Sequence record: OR769032.1
From: Escherichia phage JoYop
Reading direction: 5' to 3' (one strand)
Length of the DNA: 64,000 nucleotides
The notes under the pieces were generated by a model. That model saw only the letters and a program-made list of their open reading frames with translations, searched no databases and was not told the origin of the DNA. This document shows, piece after piece, positions 9,148 through 42,320 of this stretch; the first letter of the stretch is position 1, and the number at the start of each line of letters is the position of its first letter. The position numbers and the translations under genes were made by a program.

Positions 9148-9177
9148 ATAATACCACGGTTTGAACTCGTTGTAAAC
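9148..9177 (-). promoter_or_regulatory. T4-type early promoter
   Basis: Minus strand GTTTACA-(18 nt)-TGG-TATTAT. Confidence 0.55.
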
Positions 9178-9256
9178 AACTTTGTGAAAATTTTTAGGGA
9201 ATGATAAGAAGGGAACGATAGCTTAGAATGGTAATATACAGAATGTGAGAAAGAAA

Positions 9257-9270
9257 GGCCCAGAGGGCCC
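9257..9270 (-). terminator. intrinsic terminator after nrdH
   Basis: GGGCC-TCTG-GGCC hairpin followed by TTTCTTTCT on minus strand. Confidence 0.45.
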
Positions 9271-9273
9271 GTC

Positions 9274-9582
9274 TTAGTCTTCTATGATATCTCTATCATA
9301 TCCAAGTGAAATGAGAGTTTCTTTGAAGTGTTTAATGTTCTTTTGTCTAGAATCATTAATGAAAATGACTGGATAACGAATGTTAAGAGATGTGAATCCA
9401 GCGCGTTTAGCAAGAGATACAATCAGCGGACGATCATACTCAATCTTACCGTTATTTGTAAGAACTTTATAGAAAGTAAAAGGAGCATTAAGCTCCTTTA
9501 GAAGTTTTGTAACTGATTGACATCCAGGACAACGACCTACTTCTTCAGGGATACCATAAATCTCAATTAAGTTTTGACCCAC
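9274..9582 (-). CDS. nrdH: Glutaredoxin-like protein NrdH
   Basis: 102 aa with CPGC redox motif near N-terminus; lies next to nrdG/nrdD; start codon appears to be GTG. Confidence 0.6.
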   Translation of the reverse strand: MGQNLIEIYGIPEEVGRCPGCQSVTKLLKELNAPFTFYKVLTNNGKIEYDRPLIVSLAKRAGFTSLNIRYPVIFINDSRQKNIKHFKETLISLGYDRDIIED

Positions 9583-9874
9583 AGGAAATTACCCCCTGAT
9601 AGTTCCAGGTTTTTAGAACTTCTTCGCAAACAGCTTCTTCATCAACGGTTTCATAAGGAACATAAACCTGGATAAGGAATCCGGTATCGTCGAAGCTGAA
9701 ATAAACTGTAGGCTTAATACCATGAATCTCAGACAATGCATAGATGTCTTTAAGGTCGTCTTCTTTACCCACAAAGAACTCTGGATTCAGGTCACAATCA
9801 TGGAAATACCATTCATCACCGAACTTGTCCCATGCATTCCAGTTTGTTACAACATATTCTTCAAATCTAATCAT
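9563..9874 (-). CDS. hypothetical protein
   Basis: 103-aa ORF, ATG start. Confidence 0.45.
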   Translation of the reverse strand: MIRFEEYVVTNWNAWDKFGDEWYFHDCDLNPEFFVGKEDDLKDIYALSEIHGIKPTVYFSFDDTGFLIQVYVPYETVDEEAVCEEVLKTWNYQGVISCGSKLN

Positions 9875-9876
9875 AA

Positions 9877-10092
9877 TTAAGCCTTTTTATCAAGAACAGA
9901 ATTCAGCTTATTAGTAATTTTATCCAGACGCGCATTGAACTCGCTAGAAGACAGTCCTTTTTCTGGAGAAATCAAACTAATCACGAAAAATATAACAATA
10001 AAAGGAATAAGGAAAATAGCTCCAACTGCCATAAACAGAAAGAATGTTACAGTTGTAAGAAAATCAGCTAAACCTTTACGAAATTTATACAT
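9877..10092 (-). CDS. small hydrophobic membrane protein
   Basis: Track start is TTG; ATG at 10092 with AAGGG SD; strongly hydrophobic segment FLFMAVGAIFLIPFIVIFFVISLI. Confidence 0.4.
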   Translation of the reverse strand: MYKFRKGLADFLTTVTFFLFMAVGAIFLIPFIVIFFVISLISPEKGLSSSEFNARLDKITNKLNSVLDKKA

Positions 10093-10206
10093 ATTTACCC
10101 TTAATTGATTAACCAAGCATTGATAAGCACTAAACTATATTGTGAATAAAATTCTGGACCAAAATGAAAAATCATATCATTTATAGTATCCATAATATAA
10201 TTCAAT

Positions 10207-10677
10207 TTAATCATGTTTCCACACCCCATCGGTATTTGACCAAAGTCGCTGATTATCTGATCCTCGCCACAGCTTTTTGGTAGGAAGATTTTTCTCATAC
10301 TTCCCATCAATAATAACATCAACATATTTAAGCATTTCTAGTTGTTTAATATCTTCAAACTTATACCCTGTCCACAACCAAATGCTTTTATTGGGATAAA
10401 GATTTTTAATAGTTTGTACCACAGAGTGAATCACGTCTCTGTTATCAGGATAGAGAGGGTCTCCTCCAGTTATAGTTAATCCTTCTATATAATCATTATT
10501 CAAACATTCAATTAATTGTTCTAGTGTTTCACCAGTGAATGGAATACCGTTTCTAGCATTCCATGTTGATTTATTATAACACCCTTCGCATTTATGCAAA
10601 CATCCAGTAACAAAAAGAACGGTCCTGCACCCAGGACCATTAACAAAATCACAAGGATAAATTCTATCGTAATTCAT
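10207..10677 (-). CDS. nrdG: Anaerobic ribonucleotide reductase activating protein NrdG (radical SAM)
   Basis: 156 aa; cysteine cluster CDFVNGPGCRTVLFVTGCLHKCEGC; directly downstream of nrdD. Confidence 0.85.
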   Translation of the reverse strand: MNYDRIYPCDFVNGPGCRTVLFVTGCLHKCEGCYNKSTWNARNGIPFTGETLEQLIECLNNDYIEGLTITGGDPLYPDNRDVIHSVVQTIKNLYPNKSIWLWTGYKFEDIKQLEMLKYVDVIIDGKYEKNLPTKKLWRGSDNQRLWSNTDGVWKHD

Positions 10678-12491
10678 TGATGCTTAACCCTATGCATGAT
10701 TTCTTTATTTTTGCCGAGATTAAATCCGCGTTCATTCGGATTTCCCAAATAGCCGCATGTTCTTCTTATGGTATTCATCTTTTTAGGATCAGTTTCTCCA
10801 CAAATAGAACAAACAAATCCATTTTCAGTCGGAGTCATTTCATGGGTACTTCCGCATGTAAAACACTTATCTACTGGCATGTTAACACCAAAATAATCTA
10901 AATGCTGTGCAGCATAATCCCATACAGCCTCAAGACCTTTTAGGTTGTTTTTCATATCAGGAAGTTCAACATAAGAAATGTGACCACCTGTCGCAATGAA
11001 ATGATATGGTGCTTCACGAGAAATCTTTTCAAACGGAGTAATATTTTCTTCTACTGAAACATGGAAACTGTTAGTGTACCATCCTTTATCAGTAACATCC
11101 TTTACACTTCCATATTTTTCGGTATCGAGTTTACAGAAGCGATAACAAAGGTTTTCAGCAGGAGTAGAATACAAGCTAAAAGCAAATCCGGTTCTTTCTG
11201 TCCACTGCTTAAGACGAGCATTCATTTTAGTTAAAATTTCTTGTCCAATATCACGACCAACAAGAATATTCAATTCGTGAATACCAATGTATCCTAGGGA
11301 CACTGAACTTCTACCGTTTTTAAATAACTCAATTATATCGTCATCAGGTTTAAGACGAACCCCGAATGCACCTTCTTGGTAAAGAATAGGAGCAACAGTC
11401 GCTTTAACTCCTTTTAAGGAACTAATTCTACACATCAATGCTTCAAAACACAAATCCATTCGCTCATTGAATAATTCGGCAAATTTCTGTTCATTGAACT
11501 GTGTTCCAATATAAGAATCTAGCGCAATGCGAGGAAGATTCAGTGTTACAACACCAAGATTATTACGTCCATCAAGAATTTCATTACCAGTCGAATCTTT
11601 CCATACACTCAAGAAACTGCGGCAACCCATCGGAGAAACAGGAATAGATGAACCGGTGATAGCTTTATTATTCTTAGCTGAAATAATATCAGGATACATC
11701 CTTTTGCTTGCGCACTCTAGAGCAAGCTGCTTAATATCATAGTTCGGATCGTCTTTGTAAAGATTAACGCCTTCTTCGACGAACATAACAAGCTTAGGAA
11801 AAATAGGAGTTATCCCATCACGACCAAGACCTTTAATACGATTTTTCAGAATTGCTTTCTGAATCATTCGTTCAGTCCAGTCAGTTCCCGTACCAAATGT
11901 AATTGTTACAAAAGGCGTTTGCCCGTTTGAACTAAAGAGAGTATTTACTTCATATTCATAAGCTTGGAATGCATCGTATACGTCTTTTTCTGTTTTAGAT
12001 TGAGCATAATTCAACGCATCAGCGATTTGCCATTTTTCTGCATCCTCGATATGTTTTGCATAGGTGCGTTTAACATAAGGAGAAAGTACTTTATCTACAT
12101 TCGCAAAAGTCGTTCCGCCATATTGATGAGAAGCAACTTGTGCAGTAATTTGTGCCATAATTGCAGTAGCAACGCCAATTGATTTAGGAGTTTCAATCTG
12201 CGCATTACCAAGCTTAAATCCATTCTCAAGCATTCCTTTTAAATCTACTAAACAGCAATTAGTAAATGGAAGAGCAGGTGAATAATCAATATCATGAAAA
12301 TGGATAATTCCGCTTTCATGCGCTTTCATAATAAAAGACGGGACCATATTTTTGGCAATGTGTTTAGACACAATACCAGCCATAAGGTCCCGTTGAGTTG
12401 GAAAAACACGAGAATCTTTATTAGCATTCTCGTTTAAAAGGTCTTTATTAGTTTTATGAATTAATCCTTCAATTTCTTTTTCAATTGTCAT
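10674..12491 (-). CDS. nrdD: Anaerobic ribonucleoside-triphosphate reductase NrdD
   Basis: 605 aa; C-terminal glycyl-radical motif RRTCGYLG and Cys-rich zinc site CFTCGS...CSIC; single uninterrupted ORF. Confidence 0.9.
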   Translation of the reverse strand: MTIEKEIEGLIHKTNKDLLNENANKDSRVFPTQRDLMAGIVSKHIAKNMVPSFIMKAHESGIIHFHDIDYSPALPFTNCCLVDLKGMLENGFKLGNAQIETPKSIGVATAIMAQITAQVASHQYGGTTFANVDKVLSPYVKRTYAKHIEDAEKWQIADALNYAQSKTEKDVYDAFQAYEYEVNTLFSSNGQTPFVTITFGTGTDWTERMIQKAILKNRIKGLGRDGITPIFPKLVMFVEEGVNLYKDDPNYDIKQLALECASKRMYPDIISAKNNKAITGSSIPVSPMGCRSFLSVWKDSTGNEILDGRNNLGVVTLNLPRIALDSYIGTQFNEQKFAELFNERMDLCFEALMCRISSLKGVKATVAPILYQEGAFGVRLKPDDDIIELFKNGRSSVSLGYIGIHELNILVGRDIGQEILTKMNARLKQWTERTGFAFSLYSTPAENLCYRFCKLDTEKYGSVKDVTDKGWYTNSFHVSVEENITPFEKISREAPYHFIATGGHISYVELPDMKNNLKGLEAVWDYAAQHLDYFGVNMPVDKCFTCGSTHEMTPTENGFVCSICGETDPKKMNTIRRTCGYLGNPNERGFNLGKNKEIMHRVKHQ

Positions 12492-13457: not shown

Positions 13458-13580
13458 GTCCCATCTCCATATCAATTAAGTCATTTATTGTTGGTTCATT
13501 ATATACTGTTTCTTCATCAGTGTAAACCGGTTCTTCCGGCTCTGGCTCTACAGTTTCCCATCTAGCCGCCCACCAAGGTT

Positions 13581-16087: not shown

Positions 16088-17089
16088 TTACTTAATTAAC
16101 TGTAAAGCTTGTTCAAGACGATCAAGACGATTAACAGATTCTTCCCAAATCCTTTTAGCCTGTTCATATTCTTTCTGTGCTTTATTAGAAATTTCTAGAA
16201 CTTCTTTATAAGCTTTTTCTAGTGCAATAACTTCTGGACGAATTTCTACCGGTTCAGGTGAATCATCAAGACATTCTATTAGTTCCTCAAGAGTAGTTTC
16301 TTCTTTAGGAGTATTCACAATTTCCTCGCATTTTTGTTGATAAATTTCTTTATCAGTCGGTGAGTACGCGCATTTCACTTCACGAAGGCTAATTATAATT
16401 TTATATCCTTCCCAACCACATATATTTTTGAAAGGATACGTATGAATACTTTTTACAGTTTCCATACAGCCCAAAGCCGCCTCTAACTGATGGGTTATAG
16501 TACTAGCAATTGAGAAAAATTTATTAATATTCTTTTGGTTAACTTCCGGTGTAAAAAATCCATAATTCACAAAAATAGCTACTTTATTTTTATCAAGCTC
16601 ATATTCTTTTACGATAATCATATCAGAAGCTAAAGGATGAATTTGACGATAATCACCATAACATAATTTAGAAGCTGATTTTAAAATTTGTCCTTTAAAA
16701 AGTCTGAAATTACTAATCCAACGACGAGTAAAAATATTCTCAGGGTCTTCTTTATTATTAAGATGATAAGAATTAACATCACCGAACCAATTATATCCTA
16801 CTACATCTTTGGTTCGTTTAATTTCTTTCCCAAATTTACCAAAAATATCCCGATTAACCAAATATGAAAGAAGACGAGACCCTTTAAAGGTTTCCTTAAT
16901 ATCATCTTTATCTACACGGCTAGAAATTTTACAAACTTCATGAATAAATTTACTTGAAGAAACTATACTTGCATCAATACTATTGAGCCATTGATTGATA
17001 ATAGAAAGAACACCGTGATGACTAGACATGGGTTTAACTTTATCATCAATAACGCTATTGAATGATTTGATATATTCGTTACGAGTCAT
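16088..17089 (-). CDS. coiled-coil-tailed protein, member B
   Basis: Track start TTG lies inside the promoter; ATG at 17089 (MTRNEYIKSF) with GGAGA SD; C-terminal coiled coil ending LEQALQLIK. Confidence 0.55.
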   Translation of the reverse strand: MTRNEYIKSFNSVIDDKVKPMSSHHGVLSIINQWLNSIDASIVSSSKFIHEVCKISSRVDKDDIKETFKGSRLLSYLVNRDIFGKFGKEIKRTKDVVGYNWFGDVNSYHLNNKEDPENIFTRRWISNFRLFKGQILKSASKLCYGDYRQIHPLASDMIIVKEYELDKNKVAIFVNYGFFTPEVNQKNINKFFSIASTITHQLEAALGCMETVKSIHTYPFKNICGWEGYKIIISLREVKCAYSPTDKEIYQQKCEEIVNTPKEETTLEELIECLDDSPEPVEIRPEVIALEKAYKEVLEISNKAQKEYEQAKRIWEESVNRLDRLEQALQLIK

Positions 17090-17117
17090 AATAATCTCCT
17101 CAGTAGAAAGTAAGAAC

Positions 17118-17147
17118 ATTATACCACATTCTTGTGGCAAAGTAAAC
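17118..17147 (-). promoter_or_regulatory. T4-type early promoter between family members C and B
   Basis: Minus strand GTTTAC-(18 nt)-TGG-TATAAT, overlapping the stop codon region of the upstream gene. Confidence 0.55.
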
Positions 17148-18154
17148 TAGTTCAGTGCATTTAGTGCATTGTTCAGTTTAGAACGTTGTTTTGTCAGATT
17201 TTGAACCCTTGACTGTGCTTGTTCTAACACCTTTTCAGCTTCTAACATTTCATTAGTTGCTTTAACAAGTTCATCATCTACTGCTTTAAGAGACTTCTCA
17301 ATCGCATCGGCGTGCCATTTTTCTACAGGTTTAAAATTTGAATTTTCAGTAGGAAGAAAACTCACTTTATTAAGTTTCCATGCATCTGTACTACTTGAAC
17401 TGTACATCCAACATTTAGGATCGTTGGATGAGCGATTAGTTTGAGGTTCAGGTTTTTTCTCTTGCGTAACTTCATCCTTTCTCAAATAATCATATTTAAA
17501 TGAAACGACCATATCAAGTTCATATGTTGTCGTATCTAATTTAAATCGTTCGAAATGCTGCGAAATCTTAGACTGAACAGCGGAAACAACATCCATATAC
17601 TTAAATGCTTCTGTCAATTGTGATTTAAGGCATTCACAGATTGAAAGAGAATTTTTTGTATTAGGTTTAAAGCTAATTCGTGCAGTTCTGTTATTTTCTT
17701 TTAATGGTCTTACTTCCATCTGAAGAGTATAACCATCAAATTTCAGATTCTTTAAGTTAATGTCAGAGCCTTTTAATCGACTAGCTGTGGACAAAATTTG
17801 CTTTAGTTGTTTACGAAATAGAGCAATAAATCTCCATTCAATACGATAATGATTTGGATTGAAAAATCCAGATGATAAATCGACCTTACTTTGACCAACG
17901 CCTTGAACAAATAGAGGATTTTTATAATCAATAGTTTTACAGAAATCAACGAGTTGTTCACGAGCAGTCATTTGTGTAATATACCCCGCTTTACTAAAAT
18001 GACGTAACCATTCACTGCTATTCAGATGCTTAAAGGCATGAATGGAACAATTAACTTTACCAAGGTCTAAATTATTTTCGCACAAAAATGTCATAACATC
18101 ACGAGTATAACTGGCATTACGAACAATATCTTCAATTTGAGAACGAGTTTTCAT
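17147..18154 (-). CDS. coiled-coil-tailed protein, member C
   Basis: 335 aa; N-terminus MKTRSQIEDIV; C-terminal coiled coil ending LNNALNALN. Confidence 0.55.
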   Translation of the reverse strand: MKTRSQIEDIVRNASYTRDVMTFLCENNLDLGKVNCSIHAFKHLNSSEWLRHFSKAGYITQMTAREQLVDFCKTIDYKNPLFVQGVGQSKVDLSSGFFNPNHYRIEWRFIALFRKQLKQILSTASRLKGSDINLKNLKFDGYTLQMEVRPLKENNRTARISFKPNTKNSLSICECLKSQLTEAFKYMDVVSAVQSKISQHFERFKLDTTTYELDMVVSFKYDYLRKDEVTQEKKPEPQTNRSSNDPKCWMYSSSSTDAWKLNKVSFLPTENSNFKPVEKWHADAIEKSLKAVDDELVKATNEMLEAEKVLEQAQSRVQNLTKQRSKLNNALNALN

Positions 18155-19523: not shown

Positions 19524-20051
19524 TTATGCGAGTACCGTCTTTAACCGTTCTTCAAACTTCCGAAGAGTATTTTGGCGTTCAGCTCTTTGCTTTTTGTAAG
19601 TTTCAATACGCTCTGAAATGAGAGTGTATCGTTCATTCACTGATTCTTTCATAAAATCAGGAATTTCACGAGAAGCTTTAATCTCGTCAAATTTATCAAT
19701 AACAGCTTGCTCTTCAGCAATTAAGTTATCATACATTAAAATATCTTTCTTGATGAACTCAATATCTTCTTGAGTTACACGAGATAATTTAGATGCTTTA
19801 TCCTTTTTGTACTGTTCGTTAGTATCACGAGACCAGTGTAATGTACGATTTTTATTCGTATTTTTGTAAATTTCTACAATACCAATCTCATCAATAATAA
19901 CGATCCAATTCCAACGGGATTTGTAAATCTGTCCTCCATCAACCGTAATTTCACCTCCGATTGAGATGTCATTAAAGAACTTGCTTTGTGCTTCTGACTT
20001 AAATTTACCATCGTTGTAATTTACCAGGTTGAAAATATCTTTAGCATTCAT
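19524..20051 (-). CDS. hypothetical protein with C-terminal coiled coil
   Basis: Track start at 20111 lies inside the promoter; ATG at 20051 (MNAKDIFNLV) with GGAGG SD. Confidence 0.45.
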   Translation of the reverse strand: MNAKDIFNLVNYNDGKFKSEAQSKFFNDISIGGEITVDGGQIYKSRWNWIVIIDEIGIVEIYKNTNKNRTLHWSRDTNEQYKKDKASKLSRVTQEDIEFIKKDILMYDNLIAEEQAVIDKFDEIKASREIPDFMKESVNERYTLISERIETYKKQRAERQNTLRKFEERLKTVLA

Positions 20052-20079
20052 TTTCTGTTCCTCCGTAGTTGATAGTTGT

Positions 20080-20109
20080 ATAGTACCACAGAGGAACAGT
20101 CTTGTAAAC
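20080..20109 (-). promoter_or_regulatory. T4-type early promoter
   Basis: Minus strand GTTTACA-(18 nt)-TGG-TACTAT followed by the conserved ACAACTATCAAC initial transcribed region. Confidence 0.55.
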
Positions 20110-20111
20110 AA

Positions 20112-20414
20112 CTAAAAGAAACTTCTTTCACAATTTTTTCCACTGAACCAGGCGCTCACTGCTTTCTTAGTCTCGGGAGCAGTGTTATCCATAAACCATT
20201 CAAAGGCAGCCTTTTTATGATTCTGGAGGGCTTCTCGGGCTTTAATCTGCTCACGGTCTATTAACACTAACATATGAGCCTTTCTTGTCACCATGGGCTT
20301 CTTATGATTTTTTGAATACTCCCAATCATTTGTCCATCGCATTGTCGTTGCGAATTGAAGTACAGCTTCTTTAATTTTAGTTTCGTAAATTTCACGAGCC
20401 TTTGAGTATAACAT
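20112..20414 (-). CDS. hypothetical protein
   Basis: ATG at 20414 preceded by GGAGGTAATA SD. Confidence 0.45.
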   Translation of the reverse strand: MLYSKAREIYETKIKEAVLQFATTMRWTNDWEYSKNHKKPMVTRKAHMLVLIDREQIKAREALQNHKKAAFEWFMDNTAPETKKAVSAWFSGKNCERSFF

Positions 20415-21216: not shown

Positions 21217-22181
21217 TTTAATAATACCGTTTCAGCAATTTCTTCCCAATGGTTTTTGTCGGTCATAATAAAGTCAGCAAGATAAAGAGCAGTACGCAGT
21301 GAAACATTGCGTAAACGATTAACATTAACTTTCATCCATGATAATGCTTTATAAGTTTCTTCATCAGAAAGACCACGTTTTTGCATCATGTCAGTTGAAA
21401 GAATAACATCTTCAACCCTGACCATAATTTCTTCATTAGTGTGAACACCTAAATCTAAATAAACTGAGCGGGACACTAATGCTTGTAAATGTGGAGCAAG
21501 TTTAGTTCCACGGTCTAATTCACGGTCAATGTCAACGTTTGTGATAAAAACAATCGTTCCTTTAAATTCAAACTCACGCTCAATGCCTTTTTCTTCTAAG
21601 TAAGAAGATGCAGTGCTCCAGCAGACTTTACGGGTCTCTCCAGTGTCCAGAGCAGCTTTTAGAAGATTAAGAATGTCCATATCAGAGAAAACATCCACAT
21701 CATCAATTAAAAGGACAGAATTCTCTTCACGATTATTCCAGAGCTGCTCATAAAGACCGATACCAGAGATTTTACCATTAATGCTTTTATATTCAATGTA
21801 TCCAACATCATTTGCTTTATTTAAAGCTTTATCTAAAGAATACGTTTTACCAATACCTGCCGCACCAGAGATAATTAATGAACGAATGTTTCCGTTAATA
21901 ATACCATTCGTCATCATTCCCATAACATTAAATCTTTTATTAATGCGGGTTTTCATATCTTCATATGATTCTTTAACTTCTTCAACTTTTACACCATCAT
22001 ATGAAATATCTGATTTGTAAACCCAAACACCGCGACGCTTACCGTCAATTTCAACAAAAACTTTACCATCTCCTTGTGCATCTACCGGAGCATTATCTGG
22101 GAACCATTCACCTAAGAGCTCAAAAGTTCCAGAGATTTCTTTACCGAAGTAGATACCCTTATTGATAGTTACAGTTTTCAT
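21213..22181 (-). CDS. P-loop NTPase of unknown function
   Basis: Walker A SGAAGIGKT and Walker B VLLIDDVD; track start is TTG, ATG at 22181 with GGAGAA SD. Confidence 0.55.
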   Translation of the reverse strand: MKTVTINKGIYFGKEISGTFELLGEWFPDNAPVDAQGDGKVFVEIDGKRRGVWVYKSDISYDGVKVEEVKESYEDMKTRINKRFNVMGMMTNGIINGNIRSLIISGAAGIGKTYSLDKALNKANDVGYIEYKSINGKISGIGLYEQLWNNREENSVLLIDDVDVFSDMDILNLLKAALDTGETRKVCWSTASSYLEEKGIEREFEFKGTIVFITNVDIDRELDRGTKLAPHLQALVSRSVYLDLGVHTNEEIMVRVEDVILSTDMMQKRGLSDEETYKALSWMKVNVNRLRNVSLRTALYLADFIMTDKNHWEEIAETVLLK

Positions 22182-22215
22182 TTTGTTCTCCAAATCCGTA
22201 TCAGTTGATAGTTGT

Positions 22216-22245
22216 ATAGTACCATAAAGCTTTATGCTTGTAAAC
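22216..22245 (-). promoter_or_regulatory. T4-type early promoter
   Basis: Minus strand GTTTACA-(18 nt)-TGG-TACTAT-ACAACTATCAAC. Confidence 0.55.
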
Positions 22246-22276
22246 TGTTTTGTGAAAAATTTTTAAAAATAAAAAA

Positions 22277-22294
22277 GGGAGCCCGAAGGCTCCC
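22277..22294 (-). terminator. intrinsic terminator
   Basis: GGGAGCC-TTCG-GGCTCCC followed by TTTTTTATTTTT on minus strand. Confidence 0.6.
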
Positions 22295-22296
22295 TA

Positions 22297-24844: not shown

Positions 24845-24976
24845 TACATACTCCTCTGAATCATATCAATAATGTTGTTCACCAAATTATAAGTAAACAT
24901 TGGGTAATTATATTGAATCATCACATACACAACAAGCAAAACTTTCATTCTCTTCTCCTTGGCAGTTGACAAGATT

Positions 24977-25006
24977 ACTATACCATAACCTTGCCAACTT
25001 GTAAAC
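24977..25006 (-). promoter_or_regulatory. T4-type early promoter
   Basis: Minus strand GTTTACA-(18 nt)-TGG-TATAGT. Confidence 0.5.
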
Positions 25007-25008
25007 CA

Positions 25009-25182
25009 TTAAATGACGTTTTCGATAAAATTCTGAAGCTTTGTGTGAGCATCAACCATGATTTTCATTTCTTCTTTGGCGAAAGCTGTACCTCTTTCCC
25101 GAGAAGAATATTCATAGTCAGAAACTGCATTAGCATATTCTTCAATTAGCTTCATTAAAAACATCTGCTTTTCAGTTTTCAT
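25009..25182 (-). CDS. hypothetical small protein (57 aa), not in ORF track
   Basis: Hand-translated MKTEKQMFLMKLIEEYANAVSDYEYSSRERGTAFAKEEMKIMVDAHTKLQNFIENVI; ATG with GGTGGAATA SD; fills an otherwise empty 330-bp gap. Confidence 0.35.
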   Translation of the reverse strand: MKTEKQMFLMKLIEEYANAVSDYEYSSRERGTAFAKEEMKIMVDAHTKLQNFIENVI

Positions 25183-25819: not shown

Positions 25820-25835
25820 GGTAAAATGAAAAAAG

Positions 25836-25851
25836 TCTCCCGAAGGAGACT
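25836..25851 (-). terminator. intrinsic terminator
   Basis: GTCTCC-TTCG-GGAGAC followed by TTTTTTCATTTT. Confidence 0.55.
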
Positions 25852-29498: not shown

Positions 29499-29960
29499 TC
29501 ATTGAGTTTTAATTACTGCTTTAGAAGCCTTTCCTGGTAAACGACGACTGTTGATAATTGCCATCCTGCATTGAAGTGACGGGTCTTTGAACTTCTCATT
29601 AGGTTTACAAACCGTAAATCCAAGCCAAAGATTTCCATCAGTGATTTCTAAACGTCCAGGGCGATATTCAATTCCATCGATAAAATCTTCATCAATATCA
29701 GGACGCGGAGGCATACTCAGGAATTCATTAACTTCTAAAACATGGTCTTTTATTTTATGGAATAATTCAAAAACATATGTCTCATCAATCTCCCGTTGAA
29801 TTGCACGATCAAGAAGATGCTGAGAATATTTTAGATGAAACGATGAGACCCCTGCTGCTTTTGATGCCTCACGAATCTCATTGTTAATTTGACGAAACTC
29901 CGACTCAAAGTGACGACGAAGCTTATTTCGACGGATAAAAACTTCTGTGTTGATAGTCAT
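29499..29960 (-). CDS. regB: Site-specific endoribonuclease RegB
   Basis: 153 aa MTINTEVFIRRNKLRRHFESEFRQ... recognised as T4 RegB. Confidence 0.85.
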   Translation of the reverse strand: MTINTEVFIRRNKLRRHFESEFRQINNEIREASKAAGVSSFHLKYSQHLLDRAIQREIDETYVFELFHKIKDHVLEVNEFLSMPPRPDIDEDFIDGIEYRPGRLEITDGNLWLGFTVCKPNEKFKDPSLQCRMAIINSRRLPGKASKAVIKTQ

Positions 29961-29987
29961 GTTATTCTCCTCTTAACTGATAGAAAA

Positions 29988-30017
29988 ATTATACCACAGT
30001 CAAGAGGAAAAGTAAAC
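29988..30017 (-). promoter_or_regulatory. T4-type early promoter
   Basis: Minus strand GTTTACT-(18 nt)-TGG-TATAAT. Confidence 0.55.
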
Positions 30018-30019
30018 AG

Positions 30020-30298
30020 TTATTCTTTAAATCTGATCAATTTATTCATAGACTTTGAAACTTCTGCACGAACCTCATGCAGATTTTTGAGCTGTTCAAG
30101 ACGCTGCGTATAGTAAGCAATTTCATCTTCTTCAAGACAGTCCTGCGAATCTTCTTTAAGATAGCGTGCATAATCCTGGAAAGCATTACGAATTACTTCT
30201 TGGAAGTCATCAAGACTTTGAATTTTCTTAGGAGCGGCAGATACACGACGAGGTGCAGTATAATACTCATAACCAAACCCTGCGCTTAATTGAGCCAT
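30020..30298 (-). CDS. hypothetical protein
   Basis: Track start GTG; ATG at 30298 in TAATG overlap with upstream gene. Confidence 0.4.
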
Positions 30299-31477: not shown

Positions 31478-32061
31478 TGCATTCCGATTACGAAAAACTG
31501 TGGACGAGTAATACCACCAATGCAGCATTTACTTTTACAGCAATGTTGCACAGTGTCAATATGAATGTCGTAAATCTTATCCATATCAGGAGATTTAACG
31601 GGCTCATCAATTATATACAAAATTCGTGAAAGCGATAAACCTCTGAACTTGCTTCCTTTATTACCAATAAAACTGCGCACAGAATCAGTAAATAAACGAA
31701 AACGTATATCATCGTTAGAATAACGCGAAAATTCCTTTTTAATGTTATTTGCAGAAATTTTAGCGTAAGCTGAAGTATTAGAAAGAACAATAACTGTTCC
31801 GCCATCATACAACCAATTGGCAGCAAAATTAGTCACAGCAATTGATTTACCGGATTGACGTCCACCGTCAAGTCGAAGTGTGCAGTACTGTTTAAGTAAG
31901 TCTTCAAATGGCGGGATATATTCGTTTTTACAAATTTCTTCTACTCTAGCATCAGAATGGTGTGTAAAAGCATTCATCAGGGATAGATAAGGACCAGTCA
32001 AAAATGTTCTCATTTTGTTCTCTCTAGATTTGGGCCATTCCATGGCGCATGAATTGTCCAT
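31474..32061 (-). CDS. hypothetical protein with P-loop-like motif
   Basis: 195 aa; GGRQSGKS resembles a Walker A; ATG start. Confidence 0.45.
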   Translation of the reverse strand: MDNSCAMEWPKSRENKMRTFLTGPYLSLMNAFTHHSDARVEEICKNEYIPPFEDLLKQYCTLRLDGGRQSGKSIAVTNFAANWLYDGGTVIVLSNTSAYAKISANNIKKEFSRYSNDDIRFRLFTDSVRSFIGNKGSKFRGLSLSRILYIIDEPVKSPDMDKIYDIHIDTVQHCCKSKCCIGGITRPQFFVIGMQ

Positions 32062-32093
32062 TCCTGTATTTACCCCTCCAAGTAATTATGAAT

Positions 32094-32123
32094 ATACTAT
32101 CACAATTCTAGGAGAAAGTAAAC
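32094..32123 (-). promoter_or_regulatory. T4-type early promoter
   Basis: Minus strand GTTTACT-(18 nt)-TGA-TAGTAT. Confidence 0.45.
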
Positions 32124-32125
32124 TG

Positions 32126-32428
32126 TTATTTACCTTTAATTACTTTAGCTGCTTCGATAGCCGCTTGCTGAAGGTCATCCATAGACATACCGAATTTAGA
32201 AGCAAAGTTATCAATTTTCTTTTCGACAGCATTCAAAGGCTTGGCCTGTTTACCTTCATTAGCGCCAGGAAGAGCGAGAATACGCTCTTTGTCAATATAA
32301 AGGCTTACAAGTTTCTTACGGTCTTTATCGGACAAATCATGAAATGAATGGGCCTTTTTATTTATAGCGGCTTCTAATTTACCTGCACTCACTCGCGCTT
32401 CAGTAATAAATTCTTGATAGGTTTTCAT
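32126..32428 (-). CDS. ipII: Internal protein II (capsid-targeted)
   Basis: 100 aa starting MKTYQEFITEARVSAGKLEAA, the capsid targeting sequence shared by T4 internal proteins. Confidence 0.7.
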   Translation of the reverse strand: MKTYQEFITEARVSAGKLEAAINKKAHSFHDLSDKDRKKLVSLYIDKERILALPGANEGKQAKPLNAVEKKIDNFASKFGMSMDDLQQAAIEAAKVIKGK

Positions 32429-32468: not shown

Positions 32469-33047
32469 TTAGGAATTACGGGCTGCATTAGCAACGGCGT
32501 AAGCGTACTGAATATTGACGTCTTTAAACGTACCTTTGGAGGTATCTATTTCTGCCTTAAAGCCGCCTTTAGTCATAACATCGGCAAATTCTTTACGGAA
32601 AGCCATTGCATCAAGACCTTTCCATGATGATTTATGCTTAGCAAATTCAAGACCAGCGTAGTTGACAGCCTTAGCTAATTTATTATCAATAACCCATTTA
32701 CCGGCTTTAGGTACAAACACTGGGCCTTTCTGTTTAGAGAATAGTTTTAAATTCCAACGACGAAGGTCACCGTCAGCTTTAACAAAAGCTGCGTCCAAGT
32801 TACTAGCAACAACATCTTGAATATGGCCAAATTTAAGCCCATCAACTTCAATATTTAGATCAGTACGCCAGCGAAGTCCTTCCCAAGCGAAAGCTTTAAA
32901 GTCAGAAGCTTTTGTAGCTAAGTACCGTTCAATAGGAGCCGTTTTAGGGTCAAAGCCGTTTCCCGATCGATAGGTCCACTCATCTTTATTAATGCCTTTG
33001 GCCTTTTCCACAGAAGCTTCAGCGATAAATTCTTTATACGTTTTCAT
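32469..33047 (-). CDS. ipIII: Internal protein III (capsid-targeted)
   Basis: 192 aa starting MKTYKEFIAEASVEKAK; size matches T4 IPIII. Confidence 0.65.
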   Translation of the reverse strand: MKTYKEFIAEASVEKAKGINKDEWTYRSGNGFDPKTAPIERYLATKASDFKAFAWEGLRWRTDLNIEVDGLKFGHIQDVVASNLDAAFVKADGDLRRWNLKLFSKQKGPVFVPKAGKWVIDNKLAKAVNYAGLEFAKHKSSWKGLDAMAFRKEFADVMTKGGFKAEIDTSKGTFKDVNIQYAYAVANAARNS

Positions 33048-33075
33048 GTGTTTCCTTGTTTGTTTTGATAGAGTA

Positions 33076-33105
33076 ATTATACCATATTAATACTTAAGCG
33101 TAAAC
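33076..33105 (-). promoter_or_regulatory. T4-type early promoter
   Basis: Minus strand GTTTAC-(18 nt)-TGG-TATAAT. Confidence 0.55.
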
Positions 33106-33108
33106 TGT

Positions 33109-33369
33109 TTAAGCTTTACCGCCAGAAATAATTCCGAAGTTGTTAAAATCGTATCCAATATCGTCAACATCTACTTTAGGGCTTGCTACAACATAAGCAA
33201 TTTCACTACGTTTTGCATAGGTGTTTATTTCTTTACCATCACCGCCTAGGAAAGAATACCCATTACGTTTTAATGAGCCAAAGTCTTCCGCATCACCAAT
33301 GAAAGCTTTAACTTTAAATTTAGGACCTTTGGCATCTGCTTCAGTGATAAATTCTTGATACATTTTCAT
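33109..33369 (-). CDS. additional internal-protein-like gene with CTS
   Basis: 86 aa starting MKMYQEFITEADAKG. Confidence 0.5.
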   Translation of the reverse strand: MKMYQEFITEADAKGPKFKVKAFIGDAEDFGSLKRNGYSFLGGDGKEINTYAKRSEIAYVVASPKVDVDDIGYDFNNFGIISGGKA

Positions 33370-33375: not shown

Positions 33376-33789
33376 TTAGTAAATTGATTTACCATAGTAT
33401 TTGTACCAAGTAGGACGTTGAGCAATTTTTTCGTCTAAGCGTGCTTGACTTATCGCAATGGACGCTTCGGACGGGACATAATTATTACGAAATTCGGCAG
33501 GGATGTCAGAAATATCCTGGACAGATGTGTCCTTGATTTTGAAACCACGTTTCAAGCATTCGGCGATTAGCTCGATTTGACGTAAACGTAAAAATTCAAG
33601 TTTGTCGTAAAAGAATGTTACATGACCTGTGCCTAAGATAAATGTTGGAGAGATTTTAAAATCCTTTACACGTTTACCGTTTTGAACATGTTTACGGACT
33701 GCACCAAATACGCGTGGTAATTCACGATACTCAGCCATAAGATGTTGGTCGGTCAGTTCAGAAACAAGTGTTAAATTGATACGAGTCAT
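33376..33789 (-). CDS. denV: Endonuclease V (pyrimidine dimer DNA glycosylase) DenV
   Basis: Track start is TTG; from ATG at 33789 the protein reads [35 protein letters not shown]..., recognised as T4 endo V. Confidence 0.9.
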
Positions 33790-33816
33790 AATTTCCTCCA
33801 AGTAGTTGATGAATGT

Positions 33817-33846
33817 ATAGTATCAAAGTCCTTGGAGGAAGTAAAC
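33817..33846 (-). promoter_or_regulatory. T4-type early promoter
   Basis: Minus strand GTTTACT-(18 nt)-TGA-TACTAT. Confidence 0.5.
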
Positions 33847-33847
33847 A

Positions 33848-34129
33848 CTATTTTTCTGAAGCGCCTGAAATATATTTTTCAAGACGTTGTTTCATCAGCG
33901 AGCCGTTCTTAGCGATTTCTTCCGGTTTATCGCACATACGCAACAAAGCTTCAAGCTTAACGATATCACTGGTACGTTCAAATTTGCGAGTATCTATCTT
34001 ACTAGCAAGTTCAGAAATACGTGCTAATAGACTTTCGGCTTCAACCAAAGCTGCACCTAGCTTAGTTGCAAATGTGTCAGTAGCTTCGTTAAGAATAGAT
34101 TCTGATAAAAATTCACTATATGTTTTCAT
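33848..34129 (-). CDS. additional internal-protein-like gene with CTS
   Basis: Track start TTG; ATG at 34129 in ATGA overlap with lysozyme stop; protein starts [16 protein letters not shown]. Confidence 0.5.
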
Positions 34130-37521: not shown

Positions 37522-37564
37522 AGTATTTCCTTAGGTTAATTAAGATTTAAAATCCATGAGAGTA

Positions 37565-37741
37565 TTATACTCCGGATAGTTTGTAAACTATTTTAACATC
37601 GCCTTTTGCTGCTTTATAACCTTCAGCCCAAGATACAACCGAGTTTTTATCTGAAGATTCAAATTCTGGCATTGGGCTTTCACCAATGTTCACACAATAT
37701 GTTTCTTCATTTTCGTCGAACCAAATAGTTAAAGTAGTCAT
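37565..37741 (-). CDS. hypothetical small protein (58 aa), not in ORF track
   Basis: Hand-translated MTTLTIWFDENEETYCVNIGESPMPEFESSDKNSVVSWAEGYKAAKGDVKIVYKLSGV; ATG with GGAG SD. Confidence 0.35.
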   Translation of the reverse strand: MTTLTIWFDENEETYCVNIGESPMPEFESSDKNSVVSWAEGYKAAKGDVKIVYKLSGV

Positions 37742-37777
37742 TTATTTCTCCGTTTCTATATTTGTTTTGATAAGTCT

Positions 37778-37807
37778 ATAATAACACCGTCCTTGGTGTT
37801 TGTACAC
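37778..37807 (-). promoter_or_regulatory. early-promoter-like element
   Basis: Minus strand GTGTAC-(18 nt)-TATTAT. Confidence 0.35.
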
Positions 37808-37809
37808 AA

Positions 37810-38073
37810 TTATTTCATATTATTGAAATATTCTTCTGCGATTTCGTCGTTATCATGGTAAACTTTAGAAGACAGCTTAACATAACCTTCAGCAGTGAAC
37901 ATGTTAATCACAACCTTTACAGTATACCACTGACCGTCTTCATTACCCATTACTGCATAGGTTTCAAACATCGGATGGTCAGGACCGATAACTTTAATAT
38001 CATTCACCGTACGACCAAAATCTTCTGAAACACATTTCATAAAGAAGTTGAACAGTTCACCGTAATTATCCAT
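37810..38073 (-). CDS. hypothetical protein
   Basis: Track start TTG; ATG at 38073 (MDNYGELFNFF...). Confidence 0.45.
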   Translation of the reverse strand: MDNYGELFNFFMKCVSEDFGRTVNDIKVIGPDHPMFETYAVMGNEDGQWYTVKVVINMFTAEGYVKLSSKVYHDNDEIAEEYFNNMK

Positions 38074-38116
38074 TTCGTTCTCCAAGTTGTTTTCTGTATC
38101 AGTAGTTGATAGTTGT

Positions 38117-38146
38117 ATAGTACCACAGAAGAACAGGGATGTAAAC
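38117..38146 (-). promoter_or_regulatory. T4-type early promoter
   Basis: Minus strand GTTTACA-(18 nt)-TGG-TACTAT-ACAACTATCAAC with A/T-rich upstream element. Confidence 0.55.
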
Positions 38147-38284
38147 AGTTTTGTGAAAAAATTTTTAAAAAGTTTTGGGGAATTCTAGGGCAGGGAGGGG
38201 CAATTAAAGGATAGGATAATATATTATAAAGGGTAGAAACTAAATGATGCCTAGAGAGGCCCGGAAAGGCCTAGATATCAAAAA

Positions 38285-39697: not shown

Positions 39698-39701
39698 AAA
39701 T

Positions 39702-39876: not shown

Positions 39877-39877
39877 T

Positions 39878-39953
39878 TGGTGCTGATTGACGGAATCGAA
39901 CCGCCGACCTTCTCATTACAAGTGAGTTGCTCTACCTACTGAGCTAAATCAGC
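39878..39953 (-). tRNA. tRNA-Thr (anticodon UGU)
   Basis: Hand-folded: D-arm GCTCAGTAGGTAGAGC, anticodon loop CUUGUAA. Confidence 0.65.
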
Positions 39954-39958
39954 AAAAC

Positions 39959-40048
39959 TGGCGGAGGCGATAGGATTTGAACCTATGAGTCGCCGGAGCG
40001 ACTGCCGGTTTTCAAGACCGGTGCATTAAACCACTCTGCCACGCCTCC
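39959..40048 (-). tRNA. tRNA-Ser (anticodon UGA), long variable arm
   Basis: 90 nt; anticodon stem-loop CCGGT-CUUGAAA-ACCGG. Confidence 0.65.
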
Positions 40049-40050
40049 AG

Positions 40051-40124
40051 TCTCCATACAAGGATTTGAACCTTGGACCTCCTGATCCCAAATCAGGCGC
40101 TCTACCAAACTGAGCTACACGGAG
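40051..40124 (-). tRNA. tRNA-Pro (anticodon UGG)
   Basis: Hand-folded: anticodon stem-loop CCTGA-UUUGGGA-TCAGG; CCA not encoded. Confidence 0.65.
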
Positions 40125-40134
40125 TAAATTAAAT

Positions 40135-40208
<74 letters not shown>

Positions 40209-40213
40209 AAATT

Positions 40214-40300
40214 TGGTGCGAGAAGTGGGACTCGAACCCACAAGGAAATCATTCCGCAGCATTTTAAGTGCTGTGCCTTTACCAATTTGACCATTCTCGC
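40214..40300 (-). tRNA. tRNA-Leu (anticodon UAA), long variable arm
   Basis: 87 nt; anticodon stem-loop CAGCA-CUUAAAA-TGCTG; T-arm GTGGG-TTCGAGT-CCCAC. Confidence 0.65.
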
Positions 40301-40306
40301 GCTATA

Positions 40307-40915
40307 TTATTTATTACGTGAAAAAGACTGTTCTATCAATTCTGGACACTTTCGTTCTATCCATTTTCTAGCTTTTTGTGGGCTTATACCTATTATTTTA
40401 GCAGCTTTACTAACCCATCCAAATTTAGAATAATCGATTTTAACTAATTCTTCGTAAATTTCATCAGTTAAAATCTTTTCATTAATATTTACCAGTAAAT
40501 GATATAATTTATTATCATTAGCAATTTTAATGAATCTTTTATAGTTTCCGCCTTTACTTAAACCTAATGAAGTAATTGCAGATGATATAGTAGCCGAATT
40601 TAATAGTGCGTTTAAAATTTCTTCATCACTAACATTATAACGCTTTTTATTATTTTTAATATTTTTACCAGCAAAAGTATCAGTTTGCGAATGGCAATTT
40701 GGACATAATAATCTTAAATTTGATTTAAGATGATTTTTGTTATTTCCATCAATATGATCTAATTGCAGAACAATATGCTTATTTTGCCATTTTGAAATTT
40801 TACAAATTGCACACTCATATGGAAAAATATTTTCTTTTATTATTTTGTCTTTCAGCTTTCCTGTACTAAAATTTGGATGTTTTCCTTCAAAAATTTCAGC
40901 TAATTTAGTATCCAT
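40307..40915 (-). CDS. HNH family homing endonuclease, free-standing, abutting the tRNA cluster
   Basis: HNH core CAICK...LQLDHIDGNNKNHLKSNLRLLCPNCHSQTD; C-terminal helix-turn-helix-like region; track start TTG, ATG at 40915. Confidence 0.65.
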   Translation of the reverse strand: MDTKLAEIFEGKHPNFSTGKLKDKIIKENIFPYECAICKISKWQNKHIVLQLDHIDGNNKNHLKSNLRLLCPNCHSQTDTFAGKNIKNNKKRYNVSDEEILNALLNSATISSAITSLGLSKGGNYKRFIKIANDNKLYHLLVNINEKILTDEIYEELVKIDYSKFGWVSKAAKIIGISPQKARKWIERKCPELIEQSFSRNK

Positions 40916-41025
40916 AATATAATTCCCAATTATTAACAAAGGCTCTCAAGCAAGAACCCTTGATGATAGAGGGTATTAATCAGTGCGATATGAGTTAATA
41001 ATAACAAATAATTCTTAAAGCATAT

Positions 41026-41313: not shown

Positions 41314-41315
41314 TA

Positions 41316-41696
41316 TCAGCCTTCATCAACAATAGTGTGCGTATTGGCATTTACAATTTGCCACCAATCAAAGCGATTAGAACCATACATTGGTTTGTTC
41401 TCATTTTCTTTAATGATATCACGGAGTTCATCTTCGGTAGCAGCTTTCGCGATTAAATCGGCATATCCACCACGAGGATAATAATTATCACCTGCAAAAA
41501 GTAAAAAATTTGGTGTAATATTATTAAACTCTTCAAGAGTAATAACTGTTCCACCAGGTTGAACAATTTCTACATATTTATATCCTAATTTTTGAGCAGC
41601 ATCTACTGCTTCAAGCAGGGTATCATGGGCCCATCCAATTTGGCAATCTGGCTTTTCAGATGGATTAGCCTGATAATCCGCGTACACTTTATACAT
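41316..41696 (-). CDS. hypothetical protein
   Basis: Track start TTG; ATG at 41696 with AAGGTGAA SD. Confidence 0.45.
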   Translation of the reverse strand: MYKVYADYQANPSEKPDCQIGWAHDTLLEAVDAAQKLGYKYVEIVQPGGTVITLEEFNNITPNFLLFAGDNYYPRGGYADLIAKAATEDELRDIIKENENKPMYGSNRFDWWQIVNANTHTIVDEG

Positions 41697-41697
41697 T

Positions 41698-41883
41698 CTA
41701 TTCACCTTTAGAAATTTTATCCATAACAATAGCGATTAAACCAATTAAAAATGCTACTACAAGTGAAAAAACATTTTCTGCTGTAGTTAATAATCCGCAT
41801 ATAAATCCAACAAACATTGAAAAACTAAAAGCAGAAGCAGAAATTGCAATAGCAACATTTCGAATTAATTCACAACGTTTCAT
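41698..41883 (-). CDS. small membrane protein
   Basis: 61 aa, largely hydrophobic (AIAISASAFSFSMFVGFICGLL...VVAFLIGLIAIV). Confidence 0.4.
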   Translation of the reverse strand: MKRCELIRNVAIAISASAFSFSMFVGFICGLLTTAENVFSLVVAFLIGLIAIVMDKISKGE

Positions 41884-41911
41884 TTTATTCTCCTCGGTAG
41901 TTGATAGGGTA

Positions 41912-41941
41912 ATAGTATCACTACCCCATCTAAAAGTAAAC
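41912..41941 (-). promoter_or_regulatory. T4-type early promoter
   Basis: Minus strand GTTTACT-(18 nt)-TGA-TACTAT. Confidence 0.5.
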
Positions 41942-41951
41942 AGTTTATAAA

Positions 41952-42260
41952 CTATTTTATTCCGCGTGATGCAATTGTATTCTGTCGTTTAACACTAGTT
42001 TGTTTAAAGTCATGATTGTCGATTTGATCGGTACGAGCAACCCCGAATGATGATTTAATCTTAGCTTTAGATCCTTTAGTTATAGAAATAAACATCTCGG
42101 AAGCCCCTTTCTTAAAGTCAGAAGCGATTACTTCAACACCGTTCTTAGCAAGTGACCCCAGAATTGCCTCCGCATACTCATCGTCAAGACTAGCCTGAGT
42201 ATTAATAACGAATGTCTTTGGTGCAACTGCTTCATTGATAAATTCTTTGAAAGTTTTCAT
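41952..42260 (-). CDS. ipI: Internal protein I-like (capsid-targeted)
   Basis: 102 aa starting MKTFKEFINEAVAPK; located just upstream of 57B as T4 ipI. Confidence 0.6.
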   Translation of the reverse strand: MKTFKEFINEAVAPKTFVINTQASLDDEYAEAILGSLAKNGVEVIASDFKKGASEMFISITKGSKAKIKSSFGVARTDQIDNHDFKQTSVKRQNTIASRGIK

Positions 42261-42290
42261 TTTATTTTCCTAATTAATTTTGATGAGATA

Positions 42291-42320
42291 ATAGTATCAC
42301 TACCTCATCAGTATGTAAAC
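42291..42320 (-). promoter_or_regulatory. T4-type early promoter
   Basis: Minus strand GTTTACA-(18 nt)-TGA-TACTAT. Confidence 0.5.

Follow-up and report, generated by a model that had tools for sequence, protein, structure and literature searches.

Results and discussion

What are the short minus-strand motifs that recur throughout the early region of Escherichia phage JoYop, and why does the identity among some of their copies continue beyond the promoter boxes into the transcribed sequence? The question was raised by a first-pass annotation of a 64,000-nucleotide (nt) stretch of this genome (sequence record OR769032.1; hereafter the window), which described repeated minus-strand boxes at a fixed distance and read them as early promoters of the bacteriophage T4 type. 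Our analyses indicate that the motif is very probably a sigma-70-dependent early promoter (Pe) fused at a fixed distance to a leader, a Shine-Dalgarno (SD) sequence and the ATG of an early gene, the composite known as a promoter-early stem-loop (PeSL) cassette. As copies of T4 early promoters and PeSL cassettes, these sequences constitute a rediscovery of a known element that is ordinary for T4-like phages. The complementarity that we found between the promoter spacer and the SD region is a modest mechanistic extension of known T4 biology.

T4 early promoters have been described as 'uber' promoters combining the elements UP, -35, TGn and -10, and their alignments show added consensus regions (Hinton 2010, PMC2988021). 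In the phage pair PST/T4, the PeSL cassette consists of an AT-rich region, the promoter consensus TTTACW-N17-TAYWAT, a stem-loop, an SD sequence and an ATG (Comeau et al. 2014, PMC4122927). In RB49 and phi1, the PeSL stem-loops are located between or over the promoter boxes and have been interpreted as terminators or attenuators; the experimental traits by which the class is defined are the terminator/attenuator activity of the stem-loop and the formation of mini-circles (Arbiol et al. 2010, PMC2839356).

Number and position of the motif copies

Scanning the window for GTTTAC-N18-TAYWAT returned 12 exact matches, every one of them on the minus strand and within 9148-42320, against an expectation of 0.05 +/- 0.22 in dinucleotide shuffles. 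A position weight matrix (PWM) scan added three variants, at 37807 (GTGTAC...TATTAT), 32123 (...TAGTAT) and 25006 (...TATAGT), giving the same 15 minus-strand copies, with identical outer coordinates, that the first-pass annotation had counted. Fourteen of the 15 lie directly 5' of an open reading frame (ORF), with an SD sequence and an ATG at a fixed distance. Taking the seventh base after the -10 hexamer as the predicted +1, a position derived from spacing, nine copies have leaders (+1 to ATG) of 21-22 nt and the other five leaders of 24-37 nt, and each of the 14 carries an SD sequence of the GGAG or GAGG type. The remaining copy, 13527, sits within a 49.1-like ORF, where GTTTAC encodes P-V-Y; neither TGn nor the conserved start region is present, an SD/ATG at the fixed distance is missing too, and its RB69 ortholog is a weak predicted early promoter, Pe:48639 (Nolan et al. 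2006).

Identity as T4-type early promoters

Among the 14 gene-associated copies, the -35 element GTTTAC(A/T) at -36..-30 is exact in 13 and reads GTGTAC in one (10.3 bits), and TG is found at -15/-14 in all of them (TGn, 5.7 bits). The spacer end that had been described as TGG is so in nine of the 15 copies, the others having TGA (four), TGT (one) or, in copy 13527, no TGn. The -10 hexamer occurs as TACTAT, TATAAT, TATTAT, TAGTAT or TATAGT (6.8 bits) at an invariant spacing, corresponding to a 17-bp spacer in sigma-70 numbering. Upstream, an A/T-rich UP element contributes 5.7 bits over -60..-37, with AAAATTTTTCACAAA-type blocks in four copies. The cassette had been called unusually extended; the additional consensus regions are, in fact, normal for T4 early promoters (PMC2988021).

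The phage is a Tequatrovirus, a 4-kb piece of the region being 97% identical to RB33, RB32 and many other members of the genus. Collinearity of the window with T4 runs from gene 45 to gene 5: its minus-strand genes up to ~46 kb correspond to the T4 early/middle region (55.x, nrdD, 49, nrdC.x, mobD.x, tk, vs, regB, denV, the internal protein (IP) genes, e, tRNAs and ipI), and late genes occupy the plus strand past ~46 kb, where the GC skew switches sign. When the same matrix was applied to related genomes, it found 33 sites genome-wide in T4 and 23 in positions 1-78 kb of RB69, nearly all before early genes; the fixed-spacing T4 scan misses promoters whose spacer is 1 nt shorter, that of T4 denV among them. 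Each of the 23 sites in RB69 matches an early promoter on the list predicted by Nolan et al. (2006), in which the published 5' ends correspond to matrix coordinate +14, and 'Pe133295' in the T4 record equals the predicted +1 of the site with its -35 G at 133331. The promoter reading of the first-pass annotation is thus upheld, the sites showing T4 early-promoter architecture and being positional orthologs of T4 and RB69 early promoters.

The window copies share with T4 early promoters the -35, TGn, TAnnAT and UP elements, the start-site consensus, the location on the early strand and positional orthology, and nothing essential differs; the window has its own set of copies, with RB69-type denV and ipIII promoters and a degenerate e.6 promoter. 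With PeSL cassettes they share the TTTACW-N17-TAYWAT consensus, the repetition in plastic regions, junctions of insertions or replacements within cassettes and the composite itself (AT-rich region, sigma-70-like promoter, SD and start codon). The stem-loop trait is more variable, with a stem spanning the -10 in eight of 14 copies, a terminator-like stem-loop upstream in two or three others (in two to four copies overall) and neither in approximately three. The spanning arrangement is that of the RB49/phi1 cassettes, and the stem-loops published for PST/T4, just upstream of the promoter (PMC4122927), are matched only at 22245 and 25818. One subset of window cassettes, in which the SD itself forms the 3' arm, is not described in the PeSL papers examined. 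The window cassettes can also be likened to the repeated flanks of IP loci reported by Repoila et al. (1994), as far as these are described in PMC2839356 and PMC4122927.

The cassettes and associated elements, all on the minus strand, are as follows.

42258..42344 (-), cassette of an IP-locus ORF (102 aa, MKTFKEFINE...): -35 G 42320, -10 TACTAT 42291-42296, +1 42284, ATG 42260
41881..41965 (-), cassette of the trna.4 homolog: -35 G 41941, +1 41905, ATG 41883
38071..38170 (-), cassette of e.8, long-leader subfamily (ACAACTATCAACTACTGATAC...GGAGAA): -35 G 38146, +1 38110, ATG 38073
37739..37831 (-), variant cassette (GTGTAC/TATTAT; PWM copy 37807): +1 37771, ATG 37741; the ORF behind it has a homolog in RB69 and none in T4
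37559..37588 (-), degenerate promoter copy before e.6: GTTTAC kept, -10 displaced (TATAAT just 13 nt past the hexamer); the T4 ortholog of this promoter (37588) is intact, at 69967
33787..33870 (-), cassette of denV: -35 G 33846, +1 33810, ATG 33789; identical to RB69 Pe:64934
33045..33129 (-), cassette of the ipIII homolog: -35 G 33105, +1 33069, ATG 33047
32059..32147 (-), cassette (-10 TAGTAT) of a vs.8-like ORF: -35 G 32123, +1 32087, ATG 32061
29958..30041 (-), cassette of regB: -35 G 30017, +1 29981, ATG 29960
25834..25851 (-), stem-loop of the intrinsic-terminator type with a T run, immediately 5' of promoter 25818, the classic PeSL stem-loop
25758..25842 (-), cassette of mobD.5: -35 G 25818, +1 25782, ATG 25760; leader ACAACTATCAGA (10/12)
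24946..25030 (-), cassette (-10 TATAGT) of mobD.2: -35 G 25006, +1 24970, ATG 24948
22276..22295 (-), intrinsic-terminator-like stem-loop and T run upstream of promoter 22245
22179..22269 (-), cassette of nrdC.10, long-leader subfamily: -35 G 22245, +1 22209, ATG 22181
20049..20133 (-), cassette of nrdC.8, leader ACAACTATCAAC: -35 G 20109, +1 20073, ATG 20051
17087..17171 (-), cassette of nrdC.4: -35 G 17147, +1 17111, ATG 17089
13498..13527 (-), motif match in the 49.1-like coding sequence, a doubtful family member
9115..9201 (-), cassette of the 55.6 homolog: -35 G 9177, +1 9141, ATG 9117

Complementarity between the promoter spacer and the leader

Within the promoter, only the -35/-10 spacer is free to vary, and in many copies it is the reverse complement of that cassette's leader. 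Duplex energies were computed between the spacer (-36..-13) and the leader (-6..ATG+6), and cognate pairs were compared with non-cognate ones by permutation. Cognate duplexes were stronger in the window (-12.7 vs -8.5 kcal/mol; 0/20,000 permutations, p<5e-5), in T4 (n=32; -11.8 vs -7.7 kcal/mol; 0/100,000, p<1e-5) and in RB69 (n=23; -10.5 vs -7.5 kcal/mol; 0/100,000, p<1e-5).

Folding from -36, which represents the form of the RNA produced by read-through, predicted strong hairpins in eight of the 14 copies (-14.8 to -23.2 kcal/mol, z -2.5 to -5.95), with the 5' arm at -30..-13 and the predicted +1 downstream of it; the long-leader copies 38146 and 22245 gave no significant hairpin in this form. 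Two geometries can be distinguished, one in which the arms bracket the -10 hexamer (42320, 41941 and 25006) and one in which the 3' arm is the SD (20109, nrdC.8; 30017, regB; 33846, denV; and 32123). In these last four the SD is paired in the predicted read-through RNA, and covariation supports the pairing.

42281..42310 (-), hairpin bracketing the -10 of cassette 42320, 13 bp: -14.8 kcal/mol, z -3.64; 5' arm in the spacer, 3' arm from the discriminator to +4, in read-through RNA only
41903..41930 (-), hairpin bracketing the -10 of cassette 41941, 12 bp: z -2.52; the T4 and RB69 orthologs have different arms and the same architecture
33793..33840 (-), denV hairpin, spacer TTCCTCCAAG with SD region CTTGGAGGAA: -17.8 kcal/mol, z -3.64; covariation
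32068..32123 (-), hairpin of cassette 32123, which begins in the -35 hexamer and spacer and reaches the SD (GGAGGGG): -20 kcal/mol, z -3.46
29965..30011 (-), regB hairpin, spacer TTTTCCTCTTGACTG with CAGTTAAGAGGAGAA (regB SD): -22.4 kcal/mol, z -5.28; conserved in orthologs
24964..24999 (-), hairpin bracketing the -10 of cassette 25006, 15 bp: -19 kcal/mol, z -3.69; paralog and ortholog covariation
20055..20099 (-), nrdC.8 hairpin, 15 bp, spacer CTGTTCCTCTGTGG with SD region ACGGAGGAACAG: -23.2 kcal/mol, z -5.95

Outside the window, the motB promoter of T4 (6630, locus L002, minus strand) has a degenerate -35 (ATATAC), and its conserved leader, ATCAACTACTGAT, has an exact reverse complement in the spacer, ATCAGTAGTTGAT. 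There the shared leader serves as the 3' arm of a 13-bp promoter-spanning hairpin. A different arrangement was observed at 9117-9146 (-), where the 55.6-like leader has a hairpin of its own (CATATGAATTGCCTTTGAGGAATTGATATG, ~-12 kcal/mol), conserved in T4, in which the SD region and the AUG are paired even when the transcript comes from the gene's own promoter.

Conservation of the pairing across lineages

Comparison of regB promoters from three lineages revealed that the pairing is kept while the distal arms differ: the T4 type has the arms given above for the window, in the RB69 type TTCTCCTCTAGTTG and CAACTAGAGGAGAA match perfectly over 14 bp, and a lineage of 68% identity has CTCCTGTAAG/CTTACAGGAG. 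Similarly, the denV arms are CTCCTGTAG/CTACAGGAG in T4, the window and RB69 share the pair listed above, and IMG/VR phages supply at least four further arm variants. Several other T4-like lineages use the last -10 bases and the discriminator, instead of the spacer, as the partner of the denV SD and AUG (loci L023, L029, L030, L038-L040, L042, L044, L045, L051 and L052, positions ~228-306), forming stems of 10-13 bp and -18 to -25 kcal/mol whose 5' arm again lies upstream of the expected start. Paralogs and orthologs of the -10-bracketing stems also differ by compensatory changes.

MAFFT alignment of the regB promoter regions placed the arms out of register, the spacers being 17 or 18 nt long, and SD/anti-SD anchoring was therefore used. 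In an alignment of 26 distinct promoters (A2), anchored only on the spacer anti-SD (CTCC/CCTC) and the leader SD, 83% of the cells were paired, compared with 62.8 +/- 2.0% in shuffles, and 76 double-sided changes were counted, compared with 33; neither value was reached in any of 500 shuffles, and slid controls gave 43-51% paired.

A proposed filter of transcripts by origin

The known biology of T4 and the predicted folds together suggest the following sequence of events. Host RNA polymerase would bind the UP element, the -35 GTTTAC(A/T), the TGn extended -10 and TAYWAT, as is known from T4, and transcription would start at the A of the conserved T(-1)A(+1)TCAAC. The resulting transcript would carry an unstructured, CA/A-rich leader of 21-37 nt, in which GGAG and the A-rich tail would, according to the literature, serve both as the SD and as the RegB/S1 cleavage target. 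Both hairpin arms are present only in transcripts arriving from upstream; in about half of the copies such read-through RNA is predicted to form a hairpin that covers the -10 region or the SD, whereas RNA from the cassette's own promoter, which has no 5' arm, should stay open. The hairpin would insulate the gene from read-through expression, and an upstream terminator would do the same job in other copies.

When an upstream terminator is defined as a terminator-like stem-loop and T run no more than 110 nt before the promoter, a spanning hairpin was found in one of 16 promoters with such a terminator and in 28 of 51 without (Fisher p=4.7e-4), so that the two look like alternative ways to handle read-through. 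We favour insulation from read-through expression as the role of the hairpins, which would be exerted through SD masking in the regB/denV type; in the -10-bracketing type, the hairpin may attenuate transcription, mask the 5' leader or stabilise the upstream RNA.

The RegB/S1 target is a single-stranded 11-nt sequence with GGA and then A-rich sequence (Durand et al. 2006, PMC1702504), a form that 11 of the 14 window leaders have in sequence, with GGAG and an A-rich stretch up to the ATG. Because RegB needs a single-stranded target, an SD paired in read-through RNA should escape it. The proposal as a whole, in which many early promoters of T4-type phages have come to use their spacer as a hairpin's 5' arm in RNA and the cassette filters transcripts by origin, own-promoter RNA being translated and RNA reading through from early, middle or late promoters upstream masked and perhaps shielded from RegB, is drawn from modelled structures and appears to us plausible, if short of probable.

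Alternative explanations

Two explanations had been offered for the identity beyond the -10, a recently spread cassette or a conserved 5' leader with its own function, and at least six copies had been credited with an identical 12-nt initial transcribed sequence. This count proved too high: ACAACTATCAAC occurs exactly just three times (20068, 22204 and 38105), a fourth copy (25818) matching at 10 of 12 positions. More widely kept is T(-1)A(+1)TCAAC, present in most copies, with +1..+9 holding 6.5 bits against 6.8 for the -10 hexamer; TAYWAT-N4-YTATCAAC, with up to one mismatch, is found in seven promoter copies. Such conservation of +1..+9 could point to a structured cis-regulatory RNA acting within the transcript that starts at the promoter itself, for example a riboswitch or a hairpin that binds a protein, an idea that we consider highly improbable. 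Leaders folded from +1, as the first-pass annotation had proposed for the shared leader, are unstructured (minimum free energy 0 to -1.2 kcal/mol, z +0.26 to +0.79), Rfam yields no family on them and only nine tRNAs in the whole window, and their 21-37 nt are mostly taken up by the SD and the A-rich tail; a structured leader element was consequently rejected. That the identity instead reflects recent spread or gene conversion of one subfamily, by descent and not by leader function, is a real possibility that we place somewhat below an even chance. In its favour, the three ACAACTATCAAC copies (38146, 22245 and 20109) and 25818 have exact common runs of 19-28 nt around -19..+9, and exact mosaic blocks of 22-58 nt are found at unlinked loci of the subfamily. 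In T4, unlinked cassettes have exact blocks of 30-58 nt in common whose limits vary by pair (-55..+3, -15..+28, -70..-29), the shifting limits being the pattern expected from exchange between cassettes. Moreover, seven of the 34 breakpoints of homology between the window and T4 fall inside cassettes, which cover 4.6% of the region (p=7.5e-4), and PeSL-mediated recombination between the -10 and the SD/ATG has been shown experimentally in RB49/phi1 (PMC2839356). The shared blocks and the breakpoints fit recombination or gene conversion between cassettes. Whole cassettes of the window are, however, only 35-64% identical in pairwise comparisons, on which ground their recent duplication was rejected and the notion of a recently spread cassette stands solely for the mosaic blocks. 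Furthermore, T(-1)ATCAA recurs in RB69, as well as in copies whose spacers and leaders are not related, so that a family-wide constraint on the start region is needed as well. The identity past the -10 is thus a matter both of a family-wide constraint on the start region and leader and of recombination or gene conversion within a cassette subfamily; spread complements the early-promoter/PeSL reading, and the two are not mutually exclusive.

The hairpins raise a parallel choice. Many stems are symmetric about the -10 hexamer, and Arbiol et al. speculated on a DNA-binding recombination protein targeting PeSL stem-loops (PMC2839356), which might suggest that the inverted repeats act as DNA, in the form of a cruciform or of a palindromic site for a dimeric protein. 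We regard this as very unlikely: the arm sequences vary by promoter while complementarity is kept, which leaves no common binding site, and the stems that reach the SD have loops of 15-30 nt, unfavourable for cruciforms. In addition, G-U accounts for 67 of 477 stem pairs, and in 26 of 31 strong-folding promoters it is the sense strand that has the better fold (sense vs antisense, -18.3 vs -13.7 kcal/mol, p=1.6e-4), evidence of a constraint on the sense RNA on which a DNA palindrome or cruciform was judged unlikely. The published PeSL reading, in which the hairpins are transcription attenuators or terminators of upstream transcripts and not translational masks, is a more serious contender, although on balance we find it less likely than not. 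One RB49 PeSL stem-loop placed before lacZ cut expression as much as the rrnB T1 terminator (PMC2839356), in an assay that cannot separate termination from effects on translation or stability; the mutual exclusion of hairpins and upstream intrinsic terminators and the uncovered SD of the -10-bracketing stems would also be in keeping with attenuation. Against it, the paired segment at regB and denV is the SD in every lineage examined, even where the 5' arm has moved to the -10/discriminator, and no window hairpin is followed by a U tract, for which reason a canonical intrinsic terminator was rejected for the promoter-overlapping hairpins.

The missing U tracts also weigh against the reading of these copies as PeSL cassettes with read-through hairpins, as do several further points. 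A generic scan for sigma-70 promoters and terminators performs at chance for promoter-like sites (92 found vs 89.7 expected; 64 vs 63.4) and was of use for the two upstream terminators alone, so that the promoter call depends on the T4-specific motif. The start sites and the early timing in this phage are predicted through orthology to T4, and of the 15 copies one, 13527, is intragenic and may not fire. The hairpins themselves are predicted from folding, six of the 14 copies are without a spanning hairpin, and the -10-bracketing stems do not reach the SD, which leaves a single function for all hairpins not established. As to the covariation, the four anti-SD/SD anchor columns of alignment A2 pair by construction and only its flanks are informative, and many promoters of the covariation set are orthologs or paralogs and not independent.

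Relation to known SD-masking hairpins and implications

In T4 genes e, soc, 49 and I-TevI, long upstream transcripts pair the SD and AUG, and a promoter within or after the 5' arm gives a translatable RNA (Uzan & Miller 2010, PMC3014915). The geometry predicted by folding at regB, denV, nrdC.8 and the 32123 cassette would be the same. In the published set, however, the internal promoters are late or middle and translation is delayed, whereas the internal promoter in the window is early and, by analogy, translation would be limited to an immediate-early burst. The window hairpins are therefore not members of that set, the analogy being confined to the mechanism. Full-text searches, and the T4 reviews and PeSL papers examined, gave no description of SD pairing by early-promoter spacers, which older T4 work may contain.

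The finding adds 14 predicted early transcription units, with their start sites, to the annotation of this genome, and the cassettes mark where it exchanged modules with RB69-like and T4-like relatives. If the masking is real, it would confine the synthesis of RegB and DenV to the first minutes of infection, account for the tight limit on regB output and explain how genes within long T4 early/middle transcripts remain 'immediate-early only'. The e/soc/49/I-TevI principle would then reach the early class as well, and the PeSL stem-loop would have its role explained, a translational one instead of or besides termination. For phage or synthetic operons, it would offer a compact design in which a gene answers to one promoter and ignores upstream transcription.

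Cassettes as junctions of mosaic exchange

The e-denV-IP locus (window 32050-35110) is rearranged relative to T4, with the order e, denV, an 86-aa ORF, ipIII, ipII and a vs.8-like ORF in place of e, ipIII, ipII, denV and vs.8. Positions 33018-35102 are 90% identical to RB69, and denV is just 78% identical to that of T4, which makes the locus a T4-like/RB69-like mosaic. The junctions of the IP/denV mosaic lie at cassettes 33105, 33846, 32123, 41941 and 42320, and the passage from RB69-like sequence into the T4-like ipIII falls within cassette 33105. The promoter type of cassette 32123 precedes a vs.8-like ORF in the window, ipIII in T4 and denV in an IMG/VR locus (L036). The cassettes are thus junctions of mosaic exchange, which matches the published shuffling of PeSL cassettes and IP loci.

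Several other differences from T4 were observed along the region. Between nrdC.9 and nrdC.10, an extra 239-aa ORF (20497-21216), not present in T4, is the insertion of a free-standing homing endonuclease, annotated in RB32, RB33 and AR1 as a site-specific intron-like (seg-type) DNA endonuclease. T4 mobile elements have been lost or replaced at 5864-5889, 11953-11956 and 23311-24274: mobB is absent, nrdD is uninterrupted, lacking the intron with I-TevII, and ~960 bp of unrelated sequence replace the T4 version of the mobD region. Homology to T4 is also broken at 39173-39857 and 40303-40920, around a tRNA cluster (39545-40300) with the nine Rfam matches, one of them borderline (30.2 bits), where T4 has eight annotated tRNAs. 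Finally, two near-identical strong terminator-like stem-loops, ~550 bp apart on the minus strand (38283-38306 and 38838-38861), with the sequence AGCC(C/T)CA(A/G)CCGAAAGGTTGGGG(C/T)T followed by a T run, are located upstream of the e.8 promoter, near the region homologous to rnaC/rnaD.

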